The notes under the pieces were generated by a model. That model worked only from the letters and a program-made list of their open reading frames with translations. It did not search any database and was not told where the DNA came from. The translations under genes were made by a program, and so were the position numbers. Below are positions 56,605-64,000 of a DNA stretch of 64,000 bases, piece by piece (positions within the stretch are counted from its first letter, which is position 1; every line of letters starts with the position of its first letter). The DNA comes from Clostridiales bacterium (GTDB taxonomy: Bacteria > Bacillota > Clostridia > Lachnospirales > UBA12420), in NCBI GenBank assembly GCA_003452395.1, contig DMOI01000041.1, positions 8,362 to 72,361 on the forward strand, read 5' to 3'.

Positions 56605-58257
56605 TTACAATATATCTACTTCACCATTCATAGTTTCGCTTATAATTGGGTTTGCATCAAAGTCATATAACTTTGCGTTCTCAATACTAACTCCCGTACT
56701 TCCTTTTTCTACATCTTTTATTTTAAAAGTAATTATAAATAAACTTCCTGCTTTAGTAATCGGTTTTGTACCTGCCCACGTTGCTCTAATTTTATTTACT
56801 GTATATTTTTCATTAGATATTGCTAACATATCTGACATCAGTTCTCCTGAGACTACACTTATAACTTCCAACTTGTTGTTGTCATAAACTAAATTAAAAC
56901 TACCTCCGCAAACCTGTGATTTTTCAGTCAATTGAACATTCACTATTACGTTTGCTTCAGTTTTCCCGCTAACTCTACCCACAGTAATTGTTGGTGCTGA
57001 TAATGTTTCTGGTACTATTGATGTTTCTGGTATAGTTATTGTTATTATGTTACTTGCATCCCTGTTAAAATATAAATTTGAATTAAAATAACTCGTATAT
57101 TTATAGGTCTTACCTGATTCTGCAGTAGTATCTATATAAAAATTCTCATCTTTATCTATCGTTCCAGCTAAGCAAATGCCATCTCTATATATATCTGTTG
57201 TATAATCTTTTTTATCCCATGTTAATTTTACTGTTCCATCATCCAAAAGAATTCCTTTAAAATTCGATGGTGCTTCTAAATGAACAGTTTTATAGTCATT
57301 TGCTGTACTTGTCATTTTAACTACTTTTTCTGGTTCTGTACCCATAGTCCAAAACTTCCATGTCCCATCAGTTTGTTTTCTAATAGTCATATACCTGCTA
57401 TTTATTCCTTTTTCCCATCTCGTGCTTTGTGGATTAATTGCATCTATTTTTACACTATACTCAATTCTATTGTTTTTATCAATCTCATTAACATATACTT
57501 CATATGATTTTAAAACATAATTTTGATCAGCTTCGAAACATTCTTTTAATGCCGCTTCAGCTTTAACTTCATCTTCACTTTTTACTATACCATTATCAAC
57601 CAGATTTGTTGTTTCATCTAAATTAACCGCAACTACTTTTTCACCTTTTGCCTTGTATAGTAGCACACATGCCTCAGCCCTTGTCAAAGTCTTTTGCGCA
57701 TTGAAGTTTGTACCATCGCCTTCCATTATTTTATTTTTCACTGCTATAGCTACATATCCTCTTAAATCCATTGATATATCATTTTTATCTGCAAATTTAT
57801 CTAATAACGTTAGGTCTGGAGTTTCTTTCAACAACCCCTTTGCTCTTACGATTGCTACTGCCATATCTTCCCTTACTGCATTCTCGCTACCCCTAAAAGA
57901 CATTGTGCTTCCAATTTTATACCCCGTAAGGTATTGTTTTGCTGCCTCTACATATGTATATGCCCATTCTGATTTAGTTACATCGCTGAATGTTTGTGTT
58001 GTTTCAGTATCTTTTGGCAAGTTTAATGCCAAAACTAATATTTTTGCAAATTGTTCTCTCGTTACTGGTTCTTCTGGTCTAAACGTACCATCTTCAAATC
58101 CTTTTATTACTCCCTTATTAACCATATCACTTACTGCATTATATGCCCAGTGGCTACTTGGTAAATCCTCAAAACCTACTACTTGTGCATTTGATACTGG
58201 TACTATTTGTACCATCATTGCTAAACACATTATAAAACTGATAATTCTTTTTACCAC
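56605..58257 (-). CDS. cell-surface protein: signal peptide, 3 SLH domains, FN3-like module, C-terminal cohesin-like domain
   Basis: 550 aa. SLH repeats (FEDLPSSHWAYNAVSDMVNKGVIKGFEDGTFRP, FSDVTKSEWAY..., FADKNDIS...). C-terminal GGSFNLVYDNNKLEVISVVSGELM...GSLFIITFKIKD fits the cohesin pattern. Confidence 0.75.
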   Translation of the reverse strand: MVKRIISFIMCLAMMVQIVPVSNAQVVGFEDLPSSHWAYNAVSDMVNKGVIKGFEDGTFRPEEPVTREQFAKILVLALNLPKDTETTQTFSDVTKSEWAYTYVEAAKQYLTGYKIGSTMSFRGSENAVREDMAVAIVRAKGLLKETPDLTLLDKFADKNDISMDLRGYVAIAVKNKIMEGDGTNFNAQKTLTRAEACVLLYKAKGEKVVAVNLDETTNLVDNGIVKSEDEVKAEAALKECFEADQNYVLKSYEVYVNEIDKNNRIEYSVKIDAINPQSTRWEKGINSRYMTIRKQTDGTWKFWTMGTEPEKVVKMTSTANDYKTVHLEAPSNFKGILLDDGTVKLTWDKKDYTTDIYRDGICLAGTIDKDENFYIDTTAESGKTYKYTSYFNSNLYFNRDASNIITITIPETSIVPETLSAPTITVGRVSGKTEANVIVNVQLTEKSQVCGGSFNLVYDNNKLEVISVVSGELMSDMLAISNEKYTVNKIRATWAGTKPITKAGSLFIITFKIKDVEKGSTGVSIENAKLYDFDANPIISETMNGEVDIL

Positions 58258-58514: not shown

Positions 58515-58657
58515 AACATTCGGGGTCAGGCATGAATTTTAGAGTTTCTTTTATAGGTTTCCACTACTGAAATAGCATATTCTGTTAGGTTGATGTCTCT
58601 ATTTTTAATCTTAGATACCATAGTTGCATCTATGTTTAACTTGTTACTTATACTTAT
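58515..58657. repeat. direct repeat A (fragment copy of the 3' part of the HTH gene at 63.7 kb)
   Basis: 143 nt. Differs from 63656-63797 by two substitutions and one extra T by my alignment. In this copy the indel breaks the HTH reading frame. Confidence 0.9.
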
Positions 58658-58898
58658 GCTGTATACCTTGCATTATTTTAGCTGATTTCGTTTTTACTAC
58701 CTCTATAAGCATATGTGCATGATTATCCATGATGCAGTATGCATAAAATTTAAATTCATACTTTTCTTTATAGTTTGTAATTATATCTAAGTAATGCATT
58801 TTGTCTTGCATATCCTTTAAAATATATTCTCCATTATTACCTCTAACCATTATGTGATACAATGCACCTTCGTAATGTATCCTTTGTTTTCTTGCCAC
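58644..58898 (-). pseudogene. truncated IS200/RAYT-like HUH (Y1) transposase
   Basis: 84 aa from a GTG start. ARKQRIHYEGALYHIMVRGNN...YAYCIMDNHAHMLIE carries the HUH motif (HAH). The C-terminal half with the catalytic Tyr is missing, and the ORF ends where repeat A begins. Confidence 0.7.
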
Positions 58899-59124: not shown

Positions 59125-59958
59125 ATGAAGAAAATAATTTTTTTCAGGCATGGTGAGTCTTATAAGAATGCAACTGATATAACTGGCGGAAACGGAGCAC
59201 CATTAACACCTAATGGTAAAAATCAAGTCAATGACATTTCGACTAGGTTAAATACTATACTAGAAGATAGTCAAGAAAAAATAAATATTTATATGTCATG
59301 TAATCGTGTACAAGTACAAGAAACAGCTAACATCATTAAAGAAAACCTAGGAATTACTGATCAAATTAATATGTCATCGGATTATAGACCTTGGAAATTG
59401 GGAGTGTTTGATTCACTAAGTGCAGAACTAAGAAAATCCAGATACCCTGAAGCTTATGAAAAATCAAGATTATGGTTATCTGGGAATTTAGATGTGAAAA
59501 GTGCACGAGCTCCAGGTATGGAAGATATCGTAACATATTATGATATGATTAATGGGTTTATTGAGCAATTACCTGATAATGAGATTTATATTATGGTTGG
59601 AGTTAGGTCAGACTTAGAAGCCTTTATTAATATATTTAATAACGGTTCTCCTCGCGAAGAAATGAAATATAAGCATTACGACACTACATATTGTGAAGAA
59701 ATGGTTTATGATGAGAGAAATGGTAATTATTCTTTAAATTGTGACCAGAGTTCACCAGAAATGATCCTAAAAATTGTACAAGTTACCTCTGACCAAAAAG
59801 TTTCAGAAACTATTGAAAGTATCTCATCTCCTAATCCCGATTTGGATAATAAGAATATTGATGATGATTTTTGTAATCTTCTTGCAGATGGTTGTCTCAA
59901 TGCTTCCGATAATACTTTTGAATTAGTTTCCTCTGAAGAAGACGAGAAGATTTTATAA
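59125..59958 (+). CDS. histidine phosphatase superfamily (PGM-like branch) protein, divergent, with an acidic C-terminal extension
   Basis: 277 aa. IIFFRHGESYKN carries the RHG motif. The region where the second catalytic His (SHG) is expected reads MVGVRSDLEAF. About 80 extra C-terminal residues are D/E/S-rich. Confidence 0.65.
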   Translation: MKKIIFFRHGESYKNATDITGGNGAPLTPNGKNQVNDISTRLNTILEDSQEKINIYMSCNRVQVQETANIIKENLGITDQINMSSDYRPWKLGVFDSLSAELRKSRYPEAYEKSRLWLSGNLDVKSARAPGMEDIVTYYDMINGFIEQLPDNEIYIMVGVRSDLEAFINIFNNGSPREEMKYKHYDTTYCEEMVYDERNGNYSLNCDQSSPEMILKIVQVTSDQKVSETIESISSPNPDLDNKNIDDDFCNLLADGCLNASDNTFELVSSEEDEKIL

Positions 59959-59975
59959 TACCTACGTTTTATAAA

Positions 59976-60021
59976 TTGCAAATAAGAACAGCATTATTAT
60001 ATTTGCTGTTTTTATTTGCAA
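59976..60021. terminator. bidirectional terminator between convergent genes
   Basis: TTGCAAATAAGAACAGCA-loop-TGCTGTTTTTATTTGCAA, an 18-bp stem with one mismatch. Confidence 0.8.
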
Positions 60022-60118
60022 TTTTAAATTAAATCTTCTTGTTTTTCATTATATTCTATCTCTATATTCTTAATCTCTATTTTAAATTTTTTCCATCTTA
60101 TATTTTCCTGTAGATGAA

Positions 60119-60952
60119 TCATTTATACAATAATATTGCCAATAATTGAGTAATGTTTTTCATCTTAGTTCTATTTACTTCTATATAATCTTGATGTTTA
60201 TATACCACTTGACATTCTTCTTTCTTTTCTACAAACAATTCTTCATTAATTATATTACTGCTTAAACATATTCCTTTTTCCCTTACTTTACTAATTAAAT
60301 TACAATCCTCTAAAATGTTATCAACATTACTTTCTATATGTATATTTTTTATTTTATTTAATTGCAACTTATTATAGTAATATTCTGCAACAAAGTCTCT
60401 ATACGGCAAGTCTGCTTTATTCAGCTTTAAACTTTTAAAATTTTTTATAAACTCAGAAAAATACTTTTCTCCTTCTTCACTATCTTCATGTACTATTATC
60501 TCAAATTCTATAAATTCTCCTACGTTTAAAATTGAATCAATAAGAATATTATATGTAATCTCATTTTCTGTTTTGCTATAATAATCCCTTATCTTATCTA
60601 CAACTACATATGAATGATATCCAAAAACTTTAAACAATTCAACTATGTTTTCATATGACTTTACTTCTGATATAATATTAGACTCTTTCTTTGCATAGAA
60701 ACTCGAAAATATCTCTGATTTACCTTTGTACGTTATTTCAAGTTCCTTGTCATCTATTGTCCTAATCCTCAAGCAGGTCCTATTTTTTATAAATTCGCCT
60801 GCTAAATCAGTAAAGTATTCATCCTTTTCGTTTATTCTTTTTATAAACTTAAATCCTTCTTTTTCTATTTTATTTTTTATTATCTCAGTATCACTATCAC
60901 ACAAAAACTTCTCTTCGATTTCTACAACTGTTCTATGGTCAGATTTTTTCAT
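60119..60952 (-). CDS. CYTH-domain protein (class IV adenylyl cyclase / triphosphate tunnel metalloenzyme-like) with a C-terminal extension
   Basis: VEIEEKF (ExExK), CLRIR, TYKGK and NVGEFIEFEI follow the CyaB/CYTH pattern. Start set at ATG 60952 (SD GGAGGA 8 nt upstream, 1 nt after the upstream TGA); the ORF is open to 60994. Confidence 0.75.
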   Translation of the reverse strand: MKKSDHRTVVEIEEKFLCDSDTEIIKNKIEKEGFKFIKRINEKDEYFTDLAGEFIKNRTCLRIRTIDDKELEITYKGKSEIFSSFYAKKESNIISEVKSYENIVELFKVFGYHSYVVVDKIRDYYSKTENEITYNILIDSILNVGEFIEFEIIVHEDSEEGEKYFSEFIKNFKSLKLNKADLPYRDFVAEYYYNKLQLNKIKNIHIESNVDNILEDCNLISKVREKGICLSSNIINEELFVEKKEECQVVYKHQDYIEVNRTKMKNITQLLAILLYK

Positions 60953-60953
60953 A

Positions 60954-63494
60954 TCAGCATTCCTCCAGCTCTTTAATGTTTTTATGTTCATCATAAATTT
61001 TTATGAGAATTTCAGCTAATTCATCAAAAACATCAACTTCAATACCCTCAAAACTATCTTTAGTAGCTAATGTATTTTCTAGGACACATACACATTTTAA
61101 TCCTGCTCTTTTCGCGGCTTCTATACCTCTTTTTGAATCTTCAAAAACTATACATTTTTCTTTAGAAGTTTTCATTTTATTTAAAGCTTTCAAGTAACTT
61201 TCAGCATCCGGTTTATACTTTTCCACATCGTCTCTAGAAATTATTACATCAAATACATCATCTGCATCTAATTTGTTAAGAATATTTTTTACAAACTCTT
61301 TTTTTGAAGATGTTACCAATGCTAACTCCAACCCTTTTTCTTTTAATTTCTTGATAAGCCTGATATTTTTCAAACCTTCCGTCTCGCTGGTTATCACATC
61401 TATTCTGTCTTTATATTCTTCATATACCTTATCCATCATTTCTTTTTTATCAACTTTTTCATCTATCTCTTTTCTTGCTTTTAAGTATACCATTAGTTTT
61501 TCATTGTTCTCTAACTCATATTTTATGTAATCTTCTTTCTCTATTTGAACACTATAATCCCTTCCTAAAATAAATTGCCACGATTCAAAAAATACTTTTT
61601 CTGATGGCACTATAGTCCCATCTAAATCAAATAGTATTCCATTAATATTCTTTAAATCTCCTAACTTCCCTATCTGTTTTCTTGATATAATATCTCTGTA
61701 CGGTTCACATGCAGGTATTAAGTTCAATTCTTTAAATTGAGACATAAATTCATTAAACTTATCTTCTAACTTTTGCTTATCATCAGATATAATCTCAAAT
61801 TCAACAAAACTTCCAATATTCTTTATTTCGTCAAAATAAATATTATACTCATATTCCTTTGTACTTTTAGTATAAATTATCCTTTCTTTGTTTATTTTTA
61901 CATACTTATAAAAATTCAACATTTCAAGTATCTTCTTTGTTTTCTCTAGTCCTTCTTTATTTATTGAAACGTTAAACTCTCTCTTTGAATATTGATTGCT
62001 ATAGTCTTCGGATTCTCCTTTATATGTGAGTATAAAGTCTTTTGATTCATTCTTCCTAATTCGCAAGCATGTTCTATTATCAATAAATTCTCCTTCACTA
62101 TCTGTAAAGTATAAATCCTCTTCTTTTCCCTTTGTTTTATAAATATATCCAATTTTCTTAATATACTGTAATATTTCATCTTTTAGCTTATCGTCAAGTT
62201 CGAACTTTCCTTGTTTAACAAAAACTTTATTTTCATTGTTTTTTATACTTATTTTATGCTTCTTTACGATTTCAGCAATCATATATCTTCCTTGAATATT
62301 TGTAAAATAGTTATAATTTATTTCTGCCTCATTTTCAAATAGATTATTTAATAACTCTTCAAATGCTTCTTTACTTAAATATGCTCCACCAACATCCCCA
62401 AGAAACCCCATATACCAATACTTATTTAAAACATATGGGAAGCCTCCCATAATTTTCGGATCCTCTATTTCAACGATAACTATTTTTTTAGATACTTCAA
62501 ACATTTTCCTTAACATACCTATCAGATGGTCTTTACCAGGCATATGATGAAGCGTATTACTACAATATGAAACATCAAATATGCTCTCTTTAAAAGGAAA
62601 ATAAACTGCATTATGATTTGTAAATAGTACTTTTGGGTTTTTGATTTTACTGCTTAGGATTTCTATTTGACTCCAACTTATATCATTTCCTATCACATAT
62701 TTTGTAAGATTTAAATCTGCCAATTTTGATAAAAAGGAATCTTCCCCGCATGATACATCAACTATTCTCTCAGCAGAACCTATAGCCTTATTTATAATCA
62801 TATTGAATTCATTTTTTCTTTTTCTCTTATCTGTAAGAATATACTTTTTTATTATATTGTTATGCAGCAAATACCTGCTTTTGTAGTTTTCATTAGTTGA
62901 AATTTCATCATCTTGAAAATCTGATTTTTGAGTATTTATAAATTTTTTAAATCTTTTTTCAAAAATTCTAACAACTTCTCTATTTGCAAATCTATTTATA
63001 CTTTCTAATTCTTCTTCAGTAACTTCAACAAAACTACCTGTAAAATTCCTTGTATTGATATCCTCTTTATTTCTAATTCTCGCTATAAACGCAAGCCCAT
63101 TATGTTCATATTCTTGTGAATCATAAGTGAATTTATTTTTTATATATGCAATAGGTTCTACCTCTCCTATTTTTATTTCTTTCGATATCTTCTCTGATGT
63201 TCTTTTAATTGCATTATGAATATTTTCACTCTTATATATACTTCCACCCGGAACAGACCAAAACAACTTATCTTGCATATTCTTTTCCAAATAAACTTTT
63301 CCTTCATTATCATATATAAGAAGAAGTATAAAGTATTTTCTTTGTTTTACATAATCATATAGTCTTTTAGAAACCTCTCCCTTATAAGTAATGTCATTTA
63401 AGTCATATATTTCTCTATAAACTTCAAAAGCAAACCTTGTTTCCCCTACACTTTCTTTAAATATTTTATCACACAAAATATCCACGTTTCCCAT
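60954..63494 (-). CDS. four-domain fusion: Nudix-like / class I SAM methyltransferase / CYTH / HAD-IA hydrolase
   Basis: 846 aa, with four recognisable modules. Residues ~52-178 are a Nudix fold with a degenerate box (GGSIYKSENIHNAIKRTSEKI). Residues ~225-345 are a methyltransferase (IVDVSCGEDS, GNDIS, FDVSYCSNTLHHM). Residues ~423-603 are CYTH (CLRIR, TYKGE, IGSFVEFEI) with ExExK replaced by VKQGK. Residues ~617-815 are HAD (FDLDGT, LVTSS, KPD, FEDSKRG). Confidence 0.75.
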   Translation of the reverse strand: MGNVDILCDKIFKESVGETRFAFEVYREIYDLNDITYKGEVSKRLYDYVKQRKYFILLLIYDNEGKVYLEKNMQDKLFWSVPGGSIYKSENIHNAIKRTSEKISKEIKIGEVEPIAYIKNKFTYDSQEYEHNGLAFIARIRNKEDINTRNFTGSFVEVTEEELESINRFANREVVRIFEKRFKKFINTQKSDFQDDEISTNENYKSRYLLHNNIIKKYILTDKRKRKNEFNMIINKAIGSAERIVDVSCGEDSFLSKLADLNLTKYVIGNDISWSQIEILSSKIKNPKVLFTNHNAVYFPFKESIFDVSYCSNTLHHMPGKDHLIGMLRKMFEVSKKIVIVEIEDPKIMGGFPYVLNKYWYMGFLGDVGGAYLSKEAFEELLNNLFENEAEINYNYFTNIQGRYMIAEIVKKHKISIKNNENKVFVKQGKFELDDKLKDEILQYIKKIGYIYKTKGKEEDLYFTDSEGEFIDNRTCLRIRKNESKDFILTYKGESEDYSNQYSKREFNVSINKEGLEKTKKILEMLNFYKYVKINKERIIYTKSTKEYEYNIYFDEIKNIGSFVEFEIISDDKQKLEDKFNEFMSQFKELNLIPACEPYRDIISRKQIGKLGDLKNINGILFDLDGTIVPSEKVFFESWQFILGRDYSVQIEKEDYIKYELENNEKLMVYLKARKEIDEKVDKKEMMDKVYEEYKDRIDVITSETEGLKNIRLIKKLKEKGLELALVTSSKKEFVKNILNKLDADDVFDVIISRDDVEKYKPDAESYLKALNKMKTSKEKCIVFEDSKRGIEAAKRAGLKCVCVLENTLATKDSFEGIEVDVFDELAEILIKIYDEHKNIKELEEC

Positions 63495-63638
63495 GCTTGC
63501 CTCCCCTAAAATATCACACTTAAATCATGATTAATTGAGTGTTTATTCACTTTTCATATCTTACCATATTATAATTTTTTCTGCAATAAAAAAACATAAA
63601 TTACAAGAGAAACTGAAAATTGCAAATTATATCAAATT

Positions 63639-64000
63639 TTATTTTCTTATAGAAAAACATTCGGGGTCAGGCATGAATTTTAGAATTTCTTTATAGGTTT
63701 CCACTACTGAAACAGCATATTCTGTTAGGTTGATGTCTCTATTTTTAATCTTAGATACCATAGTTGCATCTATGTTTAACTTGTTACTTATACTTATATT
63801 GTTTATTTCACAATTTGTCTCTGATAAAATAATAATAGCTTTTCTTATATCAGAAATATTTCGTTTTTTTGTCTTCTTTACTATTTCTTCAACCTCTACC
63901 ATTTCTTGTTTTGAAACCTCTTCAATTAAATCTTCTATATTTATCAGCTTTTTACTACATCTCAGTTTAAACCTTTGTGCTTCTTCTATTTTATATTCCT
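63639..64000 (-). CDS. helix-turn-helix protein (5' end may lie beyond the window)
   Basis: The track gives 87 aa from ATG 63902, but the frame is open to nt 64000 (...EYKIEEAQRFKLRCSKKLINIEDLIEEVSKQE-MVEVEE...). ISNKLNIDATMVSKIKNRD looks like an HTH. Confidence 0.5.
   Translation of the reverse strand, partial: EYKIEEAQRFKLRCSKKLINIEDLIEEVSKQEMVEVEEIVKKTKKRNISDIRKAIIILSETNCEINNISISNKLNIDATMVSKIKNRDINLTEYAVSVVETYKEILKFMPDPECFSIRK
63656..63797. repeat. direct repeat B (inside the intact HTH gene)
   Basis: 142 nt, ~98% identical to 58515-58657. Confidence 0.9.

Follow-up and report, generated by a model that had tools for sequence, protein, structure and literature searches.

A four-domain protein of a Clostridiales bacterium and its relatives form a candidate family of multi-step nucleotide-modifying enzymes with a Nudix-like/methyltransferase core

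The domains of the protein described here each come from a well-known superfamily. NrtR regulators and the NUDT9-H domain of TRPM2 are non-catalytic, ligand-binding Nudix modules. Hen1 is an RNA 3'-terminal ribose 2'-O-methyltransferase, and RebM and AtmM are sugar O-methyltransferases of indolocarbazole N-glycosides. The generic triphosphate tunnel metalloenzymes (TTMs), for example SaTTM, PH1819 and those of the CthTTM/NeuTTM type, have the CYTH fold. The mannitol-1-phosphate dehydrogenase/phosphatase MtlD from Acinetobacter provides a precedent for a fused HAD domain that takes the phosphate off the product made by its partner. We analyzed a gene whose product resembles all of these proteins in one chain of 846 amino acids (aa). 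The gene is located in a stretch of 64,000 nucleotides (nt; hereafter the window) from a Clostridiales bacterium (GenBank assembly GCA_003452395.1, contig DMOI01000041.1, positions 8,362 to 72,361). What is new is the combination of domains, above all the rigid core formed by the Nudix-like and methyltransferase domains. The interpretation that we favor, with a probability of roughly 0.45, is that the protein belongs to an uncharacterised family of enzymes acting on a nucleotide in several steps, namely methylation and dephosphorylation. We are highly confident of the descriptive parts taken jointly: the family is real, it has a core module, and the motif states and the paired CYTH copies are as reported below.

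The open reading frame (ORF) runs uninterrupted over 846 codons, with its sole stop at the end. An identical protein is called in the NCBI metagenome-assembled genome (MAG) GCA_001797235.1 (Clostridiales bacterium), in a JGI metagenome and in a Logan assembly. A second groundwater Clostridiales genome, referred to as the sibling, contains an orthologue (P0002) of equal length with 92% identity. Between the two orthologues (synonymous divergence, dS, ~0.5) the ratio of nonsynonymous to synonymous substitutions (dN/dS) is 0.05-0.08 in every one of the four domains, the two seemingly inactive ones among them. The preliminary description of this DNA had raised the concern that an assembly error or a frameshift joined separate genes. 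Because the protein is identical in three independent assemblies, has an orthologue of the same length and is under purifying selection in all four domains, such an artefact is ruled out and the gene is a real single ORF. All the motifs quoted in that description were found at their positions in the translation. Pfam recognizes HAD_2 (8.8e-37), CYTH (1e-14) and Methyltransf_25 (7e-11; Methyltransf_25/11 ~1e-10) in the protein. In an AlphaFold model of the full-length chain every domain is confident and the relative placement of the domains is not (predicted local distance difference test, pLDDT, 86; predicted template modelling score, pTM, 0.52); a Foldseek search with this model gave matches to the HAD and CYTH domains only. 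The layout is summarized in Table 1.

Table 1. Positions in the window of the four-domain gene, its domains and the coupled partner gene.
Feature	Residues	Window coordinates	Strand	Basis
Four-domain protein, 846 aa: Nudix-like, SAM methyltransferase, CYTH without ExExK, HAD-IA phosphatase		60954..63494	(-)	
N-terminal helices and Nudix-fold domain with degenerate Nudix box	~1-195	62910..63494	(-)	Pfam, family profile, alignment, dN/dS
Linker helices and class I SAM methyltransferase, packed rigidly on the Nudix-like domain	~196-420	62235..62909	(-)	
CYTH/TTM tunnel domain, ExExK replaced by VKQGK	~421-605	61680..62234	(-)	
HAD-IA phosphatase with four motifs and helical C1-type cap (~631-705)	~606-846	60954..61679	(-)	
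CYTH paralogue, 277 aa, with intact ExExK (EIEEK) and shrunken, inactivated HAD relic		60119..60952	(-)	

A homologue search that covered 5.8 billion proteins found 48 relatives of the 846-aa protein. About 32 of the 48 show the complete architecture (777-854 aa, 38-44% identity); their hosts are Patescibacteria (Uhrbacteria, Nomurabacteria and others), uncultured Bacilli, Lachnospiraceae (Clostridia) and Bacteroidota/Muribaculaceae. Another 11 are a short form of ~570 aa without the HAD domain. All genome matches of the family are to MAGs, and none is to a cultured organism. Some MAGs (L012, L013, L014) are labelled 'uncultured Gammaproteobacteria'; since their contigs (e.g. CAZJPG010000003.1) are Patescibacteria-like in gene content and have close Patescibacteria homologues, these labels look doubtful.

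An exhaustive HMMER search with residues 1-420 as the query returned 701 relatives, of which 103 fell below 1e-30. Proteins of ~400 aa that span residues 22-410 of the 846-aa protein are numerous among the 701. These widespread stand-alone proteins indicate that the conserved core is the Nudix-like plus methyltransferase module. AlphaFold, run on the core with 69 diverse sequences, predicts that both domains form one rigid body (pLDDT 93.8, pTM 0.91). The core occurs alone, as core+HAD, as HAD+core with the HAD domain at the N terminus, as core+CYTH, as core+CYTH+HAD and, in one case, as core+TIR. The same parts also occur as separate genes in operons, for example a core gene (412 aa) followed by a CYTH-HAD gene (423 aa). 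Gut Bacilli have operons with a LysR gene, a core of ~350 aa and a protein of ~355 aa containing CYTH plus an inactivated HAD domain; some genomes have one more gene after these, for HAD or CYTH-HAD. The parts that are fused in the window are thus divided over two or three genes in other genomes. The architecture had been singled out as unusual. It is indeed real and unassigned, but it is only one of several arrangements around the Nudix-like/methyltransferase core. Since the parts are fused in varied orders and split into adjacent genes, the activities appear to work together, and we regard this pattern as strong evidence for a functional link between the core, HAD and CYTH activities.

The one relative with a TIR domain (P0162 and its cluster, 604-662 aa; TIR_2 1.6e-9 at the C terminus) carries the name 'internalin A' in the source database. 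It may link the core to nucleotides derived from nicotinamide adenine dinucleotide (NAD) or ADP-ribose. The core was not found among sequenced phages and plasmids, and the NCBIfam models all score far below their cut-offs on it. In agreement with the preliminary description, which knew of no characterised protein with this domain order, the literature searched yielded no description of the four-domain architecture or of the core, catalogued CYTH fusions do not include the architecture, and no curated family model covers it. Public annotations of family members are generic or misleading.

The Nudix box region of the 846-aa protein (PGGSIYKSENIHNAIKRTSEKI at residues 82-103) keeps G83/G84, E90 and R98 and has RTSEKI instead of REUxEE. 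The Pfam NUDIX model (PF00293) scores 17.7 bits (3.7e-3), which is below the gathering score of 21.1; it is above threshold in relatives (P0130, 25.3 bits), and PF00293 is precomputed for the short form. A family profile made from the Nudix-like region of 23 diverse members (alignment A5) matched solved Nudix structures with a best value of 8e-7. The matches at 1e-6 to 1e-4 include MutT-type proteins, NUDT18, NUDX1 (geranyl diphosphate hydrolase) and RppH; specific similarity to ADP-ribose-binding Nudix subfamilies was not seen in this comparison. Hence the Nudix fold is recognisable by profile, and the catalytic box Gx5Ex7REUxEExGU with its metal-binding glutamates is not preserved. The decay of this box is graded: some stand-alone cores have R-x-x-x-E-E-T-G-L, the 570-aa form retains one Glu (RIVLKETGL) and the long forms retain none. 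The Nudix-like region has a dN/dS of 0.05 between the two orthologues, which shows that the domain is retained for a non-hydrolytic role. The earlier suggestion of a binding rather than a hydrolytic module is thus in line with a degeneracy that runs through the family alignments, and a binding or scaffolding role is likely. Like NrtR and the TRPM2 NUDT9-H domain, this is a Nudix fold with a degenerate box that is kept under selection and presumably binds a ligand. However, those modules are joined to DNA-binding or ion-channel domains, whereas the domain here is packed rigidly on a methyltransferase.

The methyltransferase motifs are VDVSCGEDS at 245-253 (motif I), GNDIS at 269-273 and FDVSYCSNTLHHM at 306-318; all three, which had been noted from the sequence, are intact and conserved across the family. 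D246 and G250 of motif I, N270, D271, N313, H316 and H317 are invariant over the 69 sequences. The domain has the Rossmann-like fold, the Gly-rich motif I and the acidic residue at the end of strand 2 that define class I SAM (S-adenosylmethionine) methyltransferases, and it is matched by the Pfam families Methyltransf_25/11/23/31. More than 1000 methyltransferases were matched by Foldseek, of which the top seven are bacterial Hen1 (E 1e-9, TM-score ~0.71). The best PDB matches by sequence are RebM (1e-4) and AtmM (5e-4). With these two enzymes the domain shares an 'LHHMP' after strand 4 and the Methyltransf_11/25 type; they differ in being stand-alone tailoring enzymes of natural products without a Nudix-like domain or phosphate-handling partners.

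Two short helices of Hen1, which have been called Hen1-specific (PMC10781085), carry the ligands of the catalytic metal: the one between strand 4 and helix 4 has E-x-x-E-H, and the one after strand 5 has a His with an Asp before it. In the AlphaFold model of the core a short helix after strand 4 holds N313-x-x-H316-H317 (N313-T-L-H316-H317), and E344-D345-P346 precedes a short helix after strand 5. The residues N313/H316/H317 and E344-D345 would thus form a putative metal site positioned like the Hen1 ligands. This is a structural resemblance only and not family membership: the Hen1 NCBIfam model (TIGR04074), which reaches the helices before motif I, gives 21.1 bits against a cut-off of 340, the E-x-x-E-H ligand motif of Hen1 reads N-x-x-H-H here, and the identity to Hen1 is 12-14%. 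Furthermore, the family has neither a Pnkp partner nor double-stranded-RNA-binding domains, and the Nudix-like fusion is not present in Hen1.

The likeness to Hen1 is the starting point for the main rival to the nucleotide model, namely that the proteins process or repair RNA ends. The methyltransferase would then methylate the 2'-O of a 3'-terminal ribose as Hen1 does, the CYTH domain would act as a 5'-triphosphatase like Cet1 and the HAD domain as a 3'-phosphatase like T4 Pnk; the degenerate Nudix domain would hold the RNA 5' end in the manner of RppH, and neighbouring P-loop kinases would be 5'-kinases. The Hen1 structures as top matches, the weak Hen1 NCBIfam match and the match of the Nudix profile to RppH are consistent with this explanation, but the NCBIfam score is only a small fraction of what is required for a Hen1, and the evidence from the other domains and from the neighbouring genes (see below) makes RNA-end processing unlikely. 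The methyltransferase relatives at the sequence level act on natural-product sugars, quinones and phosphoethanolamine. This fits another alternative, according to which the family would methylate (on O, N or C) and dephosphorylate a phosphorylated sugar, a vitamin precursor or a pterin. The Nudix-like and CYTH domains would in that case handle a di- or triphosphate leaving group, as in dihydroneopterin triphosphate or an isoprenoid diphosphate; the profile match to NUDX1 is compatible with such a function.

The CYTH domain contains VKQGK at 426-430, CLRIR at 476-480, TYKGE at ~489-493 (K492) and FVEFEI at 563-568. It keeps RxR (478/480), K492, K536/R538, ExE (565/567) and DxY (460/462), and R478, R480, K492, K536, R538 and E565 are invariant in the family alignment. 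Foldseek finds SaTTM and PH1819 as the closest structures (TM-score 0.75-0.80 to SaTTM, PH1819 and YpAC-IV). The eight-stranded tunnel fold of CYTH/TTM proteins (PF01928) is therefore present together with RxR, K and ExE, and the N-terminal ExExK hallmark is absent. Both statements of the preliminary description on this point, the replacement of ExExK by VKQGK and the presence of the core residues, hold for the window protein. However, its view of the CYTH as an apparently inactivated domain cannot be extended to the family: 27 of the 32 long forms have an intact ExExK, as do all short forms, and the losses are confined to the window protein, the sibling P0002, P0017, P0025 and P0030.

Class IV cyclases require HFxxxxExExK and lose the central Arg, and thiamine triphosphatases have WxRxR (PMC8233210). 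None of the aligned family members has HF upstream of ExExK, and CLRIR keeps both arginines. The C-L-R-I-R, ExE and DxY motifs and the missing HF therefore assign the domain to the generic triphosphatase type and not to the cyclases or thiamine triphosphatases. The protein exceeds the cut-off of the NCBIfam model cyaB (TIGR00318; 64.5 bits, cut-off 57.95), but this model does not separate cyclases from triphosphatases; the absent HF and the retained central Arg speak against a class IV (CyaB) adenylate cyclase. The many public labels 'class IV adenylate cyclase' on family members are probably wrong. The plant proteins TTM1/2, which lack ExExK, are pyrophosphatases (PMC8233210). The fused CYTH of the window and the sibling has lost both metal-binding glutamates of ExExK but keeps the basic tunnel residues, ExE and DxY and is under purifying selection; it probably either only binds phosphates or has a reduced, altered activity. 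Hence the family resembles the generic TTMs in its fold, in small-x-R-x-R, K, ExE and DxY and, in most members, in ExExK, but the fused copy in the window is without both glutamates of the latter motif. The similarity is to bacterial and archaeal triphosphatases of inorganic triphosphate (PPPi) or nucleoside triphosphates (NTPs) and not to Cet1, which argues against a role at RNA ends.

The CYTH data also bear on a signalling function. In such a sensor-effector system an inactive Nudix and an inactive CYTH domain would sense a nucleotide, for example ADP-ribose or a triphosphate alarmone, and thereby control the output of the methyltransferase and the HAD domain; alternatively, the CYTH domain would make a cyclic nucleotide. 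The degenerate Nudix domain recalls the ligand-binding modules of NrtR and TRPM2 mentioned above, the cyaB model scores above its cut-off, one relative has a TIR domain, and LysR regulators adjoin family genes in 20 Bacilli loci. We nevertheless consider this explanation very improbable. The CYTH domain has no HF motif and keeps the Arg that true class IV cyclases lose, and it is catalytically complete in most members, so that inactivity is not a trait of the family. Furthermore, an effector-type domain is absent, the HAD and methyltransferase domains are metabolic catalysts, and the genomic contexts are of the housekeeping kind. The PADLOC defence models matched neither the fusion nor the partner gene nor the neighbouring His_Phos_1 gene.

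The HAD domain had been described as having all four motifs intact, and this is confirmed: DLDGT at 623-627 (D623/D625), LVTSS at 726-730, KYKPD at 759-763 (K ~761) and FEDSKRG at 784-790 are present and conserved in the family. The model TIGR01509 (HAD-SF-IA-v3) scores 65.3 bits against a cut-off of 29.4. In the AlphaFold model a helical insert at 631-705 separates motifs I and II. An insert at this place is the C1 cap, which is typical of small-molecule phosphatases; with motifs I-IV and this cap the domain belongs to subfamily IA. Its best matches are of the beta-phosphoglucomutase-like type, namely TM1254, the phosphatase domain of MtlD, YniC and the pyrophosphatase BT2127. With MtlD and the stand-alone TM1254, YniC and BT2127 it shares the four motifs and the cap, but the partner domains and the presumed substrate are different.

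When the protein was compared with PHROGs only the HAD part found matches, one of which is a phage polynucleotide-kinase PHROG (6.6e-8). This match would agree with the processing of RNA ends. However, the large helical cap and the closeness to small-molecule phosphatases of the beta-phosphoglucomutase type speak against it, as polynucleotide 3'-phosphatases have no cap in the HAD classification. The same HAD relatives, being sugar-phosphate phosphatases and pyrophosphatases, are favorable to a substrate other than a nucleotide.

Directly downstream of the four-domain gene, and translationally coupled to it, is a gene for a 277-aa CYTH paralogue, which the preliminary description did not mention in connection with the fusion. 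Its ATG at 60952 lies 1 nt past the stop codon (TGA) of the 846-aa gene, and the end of the upstream gene contains a ribosome-binding site, GGAGG. A 291-aa ORF at this locus is merely the longest-ORF extension of the 277-aa gene. The 277-aa protein aligns with the fused CYTH-linker region with an E-value of 3e-34, and its tail of ~80 aa aligns with the HAD domain but is devoid of motifs I, III and IV. The gene is under purifying selection (dN/dS 0.11), and the sibling genome has retained the pair, coupled in the same way, among entirely different flanking genes. The 277-aa protein has 39.5% identity to the fused CYTH and up to 44% to distant members of the family, and in a neighbour-joining tree (no bootstrap support) it groups with the CYTH genes of the split operons. 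The low identity to the fused copy and the grouping with the split operons rule out a recent tandem duplication as its source. Genes with an intact ExExK in the CYTH domain and a dead HAD domain recur in the split operons of Bacilli, and locus L029 has two CYTH paralogues like the window.

With an intact HAD domain in the fusion and an intact CYTH domain in the partner, the two-gene cassette holds exactly one intact copy of each activity. The partner gene would thus supply the ExExK triphosphatase motif that the fused CYTH has lost. The cassette is a clear natural example of complementary decay, in which one chain keeps the HAD and the other keeps the CYTH activity, and such a pair could help to separate what each of these activities contributes. 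In P0025 from Lachnospiraceae the fused CYTH is strongly decayed and is also followed by a tightly coupled gene (L010:7148-7783, 211 aa). This gene is not a second case of CYTH complementation, as its product is not a CYTH protein; it is weakly similar to 2H phosphoesterases (2_5_RNA_ligase2 1.4e-3, CPDase 8.9e-3). A 2H/LigT-like neighbour of this kind would suit an enzyme that acts on RNA ends.

Across phyla no conserved neighbours of the four-domain gene were found, which fits a self-contained enzyme. The gene is located between ackA and asnB in one genome, between gatC and gatA in another and beside Rhs toxin genes in a third. In the loci L006, L013 and L015, which are from Patescibacteria and related MAGs, the gene interrupts the amidotransferase operon between gatC and gatA and directly follows a gene for a NAD-dependent DNA ligase.

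A survey of ~50 loci of the wider family revealed recurrent neighbours. A divergent Tmk-like kinase and a GreA-like protein are each present in 12 loci, in variable orders that include Tmk-GreA-core and core-Tmk-GreA. Other recurrent neighbours are an ADK-like P-loop kinase, an AAA_28 kinase, a canonical Nudix protein, a Ham1 inosine triphosphatase (ITPase) and a phosphoribosyltransferase. A Vut_1/YhhQ-type transporter is encoded nearby in 4 loci. The Tmk-like neighbours carry 'F-Y-K-T-P' or 'V-H-T-P' (L055:4879-5445, L056:7223-7810 and the cluster-2 genes of L007, L011, L030, L032, L033 and L047), where the E. coli Tmk has 'F-T-R-E-P-G-G-T' with the canonical dTMP-binding 'T-R-E-P-G-G-T'. This difference suggests a kinase that is dedicated to another nucleotide and not a housekeeping thymidylate kinase. 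The Tmk-like neighbours gave rise to the idea of a SAM-dependent thymidylate synthesis, which is unlikely because the core has no invariant cysteine that could serve as a nucleophile. In the locus L056:6001-8346 a core methyltransferase, an overlapping Tmk-like kinase and a GreA-like protein have transposase genes on both sides, as if they were a mobile cassette.

The occurrence of three nucleotide-kinase families beside the core in distant lineages points to a nucleotide substrate. It also weakens the case for a non-nucleotide substrate: these kinases are the most widespread partners, the Ham1 and MutT-type Nudix neighbours likewise point to nucleotides, and in none of the loci examined is the gene surrounded by a biosynthetic gene cluster. 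The nearby transporter genes are consistent with a non-nucleotide small molecule, but as a whole we regard this alternative as quite unlikely. The GreA-like neighbours in the 12 loci could be seen as favoring RNA ends; however, the kinases beside the core resemble Tmk, ADK and AAA_28 and not Pnk or Clp1, and a Pnkp/Hen1 repair partner, either a ligase or a Pnkp-like gene, was found in none of the ~50 neighbourhoods.

Together, these results can be accommodated in the following scheme for a nucleotide-modifying enzyme. The Nudix-like domain, having lost the hydrolytic glutamates, would hold a nucleoside (poly)phosphate against the methyltransferase. The Hen1/RebM-like methyltransferase would then O-methylate a sugar (ribose) hydroxyl of the held ligand, and the CYTH/TTM domain of the generic triphosphatase type would bind or hydrolyse a tri- or diphosphate. 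Finally, the capped HAD-IA domain would remove the last phosphate from a small-molecule product, as the fused HAD of MtlD does. The outcome would be either that a methylated nucleoside or nucleotide is made or that an aberrant one is disposed of; the Ham1 and MutT-type Nudix neighbours fit disposal. The analysis shows which domains are present, the state of their motifs, their conservation and selection, the alternative architectures and the neighbouring genes; from these we infer the nucleotide substrate, the O-methylation of ribose and the order of the steps. The preliminary description had proposed a sensor-effector or a multi-step modification enzyme; the second of these fits the data better, and we found no evidence for a sensor-effector or a defence role.

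Several points weigh against a nucleotide-modifying enzyme of this type. The nucleotide as the substrate is itself a deduction, and the neighbourhoods of the four-domain form differ between phyla. The signal from the tmk, greA and ham1 neighbours may in part be gene order inherited among related small genomes. A system that contains both kinases and phosphatases looks futile if its steps are neither ordered nor regulated. The methyltransferase resembles Hen1 and RebM in fold and motifs only (12-17% identity), and other small-molecule methyltransferases (NodS, 3l8d) score nearly as high in Foldseek. Both the metal site and a pocket shared by the Nudix-like and methyltransferase domains are predictions from the model. 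The proposed complementation of a dead by an intact CYTH domain is based on a single evolutionary event, observed in two closely related genomes, and P0025, which also lacks ExExK, has a different downstream gene.

Because the core has been joined repeatedly and independently to phosphatases, a triphosphatase and nucleotide kinases, a new nucleotide-methylating pathway is a concrete hypothesis that can be tested. More specifically, the core, the dedicated divergent Tmk-like kinase, the TTM and the HAD domain might constitute an unrecognised pathway that makes or disposes of a free nucleotide or nucleoside that is methylated on the ribose O or otherwise. We put this extension forward tentatively and consider it rather doubtful. 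If true, it would represent a new branch of nucleotide metabolism or of pool sanitation, concentrated in Patescibacteria and other bacteria with reduced genomes. Strong selection acts on the family in lineages whose genomes are very small (Patescibacteria and Mollicutes-like gut Bacilli), and in such genomes a gene that is kept tends to be important.

Some minor observations concern the surroundings of the genes. Rfam elements or riboswitches were not detected near family genes in 9 loci, and a scan for promoters and terminators gave a signal at background level. Two window ORFs of 173 and 198 aa were considered as GreA/Tmk partners and ruled out, as they are neither. A 277-aa histidine phosphatase (59125-59958, (+) strand; His_Phos_1 3e-9) is encoded convergently with the cassette; since this gene is not beside the cassette in the sibling genome, it is probably unrelated. 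The window also contains a truncated transposase fragment of the IS200/Y1 type (58644-58898, (-) strand; 84 aa, PF01797 8e-10) and a gene for a 550-aa protein with SLH and cohesin domains (56605-58257, (-) strand), which would serve in anchoring of the cell-surface or cellulosome type. Within the window the GC content is lowest in the cassette region (60001-64000), at 0.26-0.27 versus ~0.32. In the sibling genome the cassette is located among gene fragments, an AAA_14/DUF4143 ATPase gene and a GmrSD gene. The cassette seems to reside in variable DNA that was possibly acquired horizontally.

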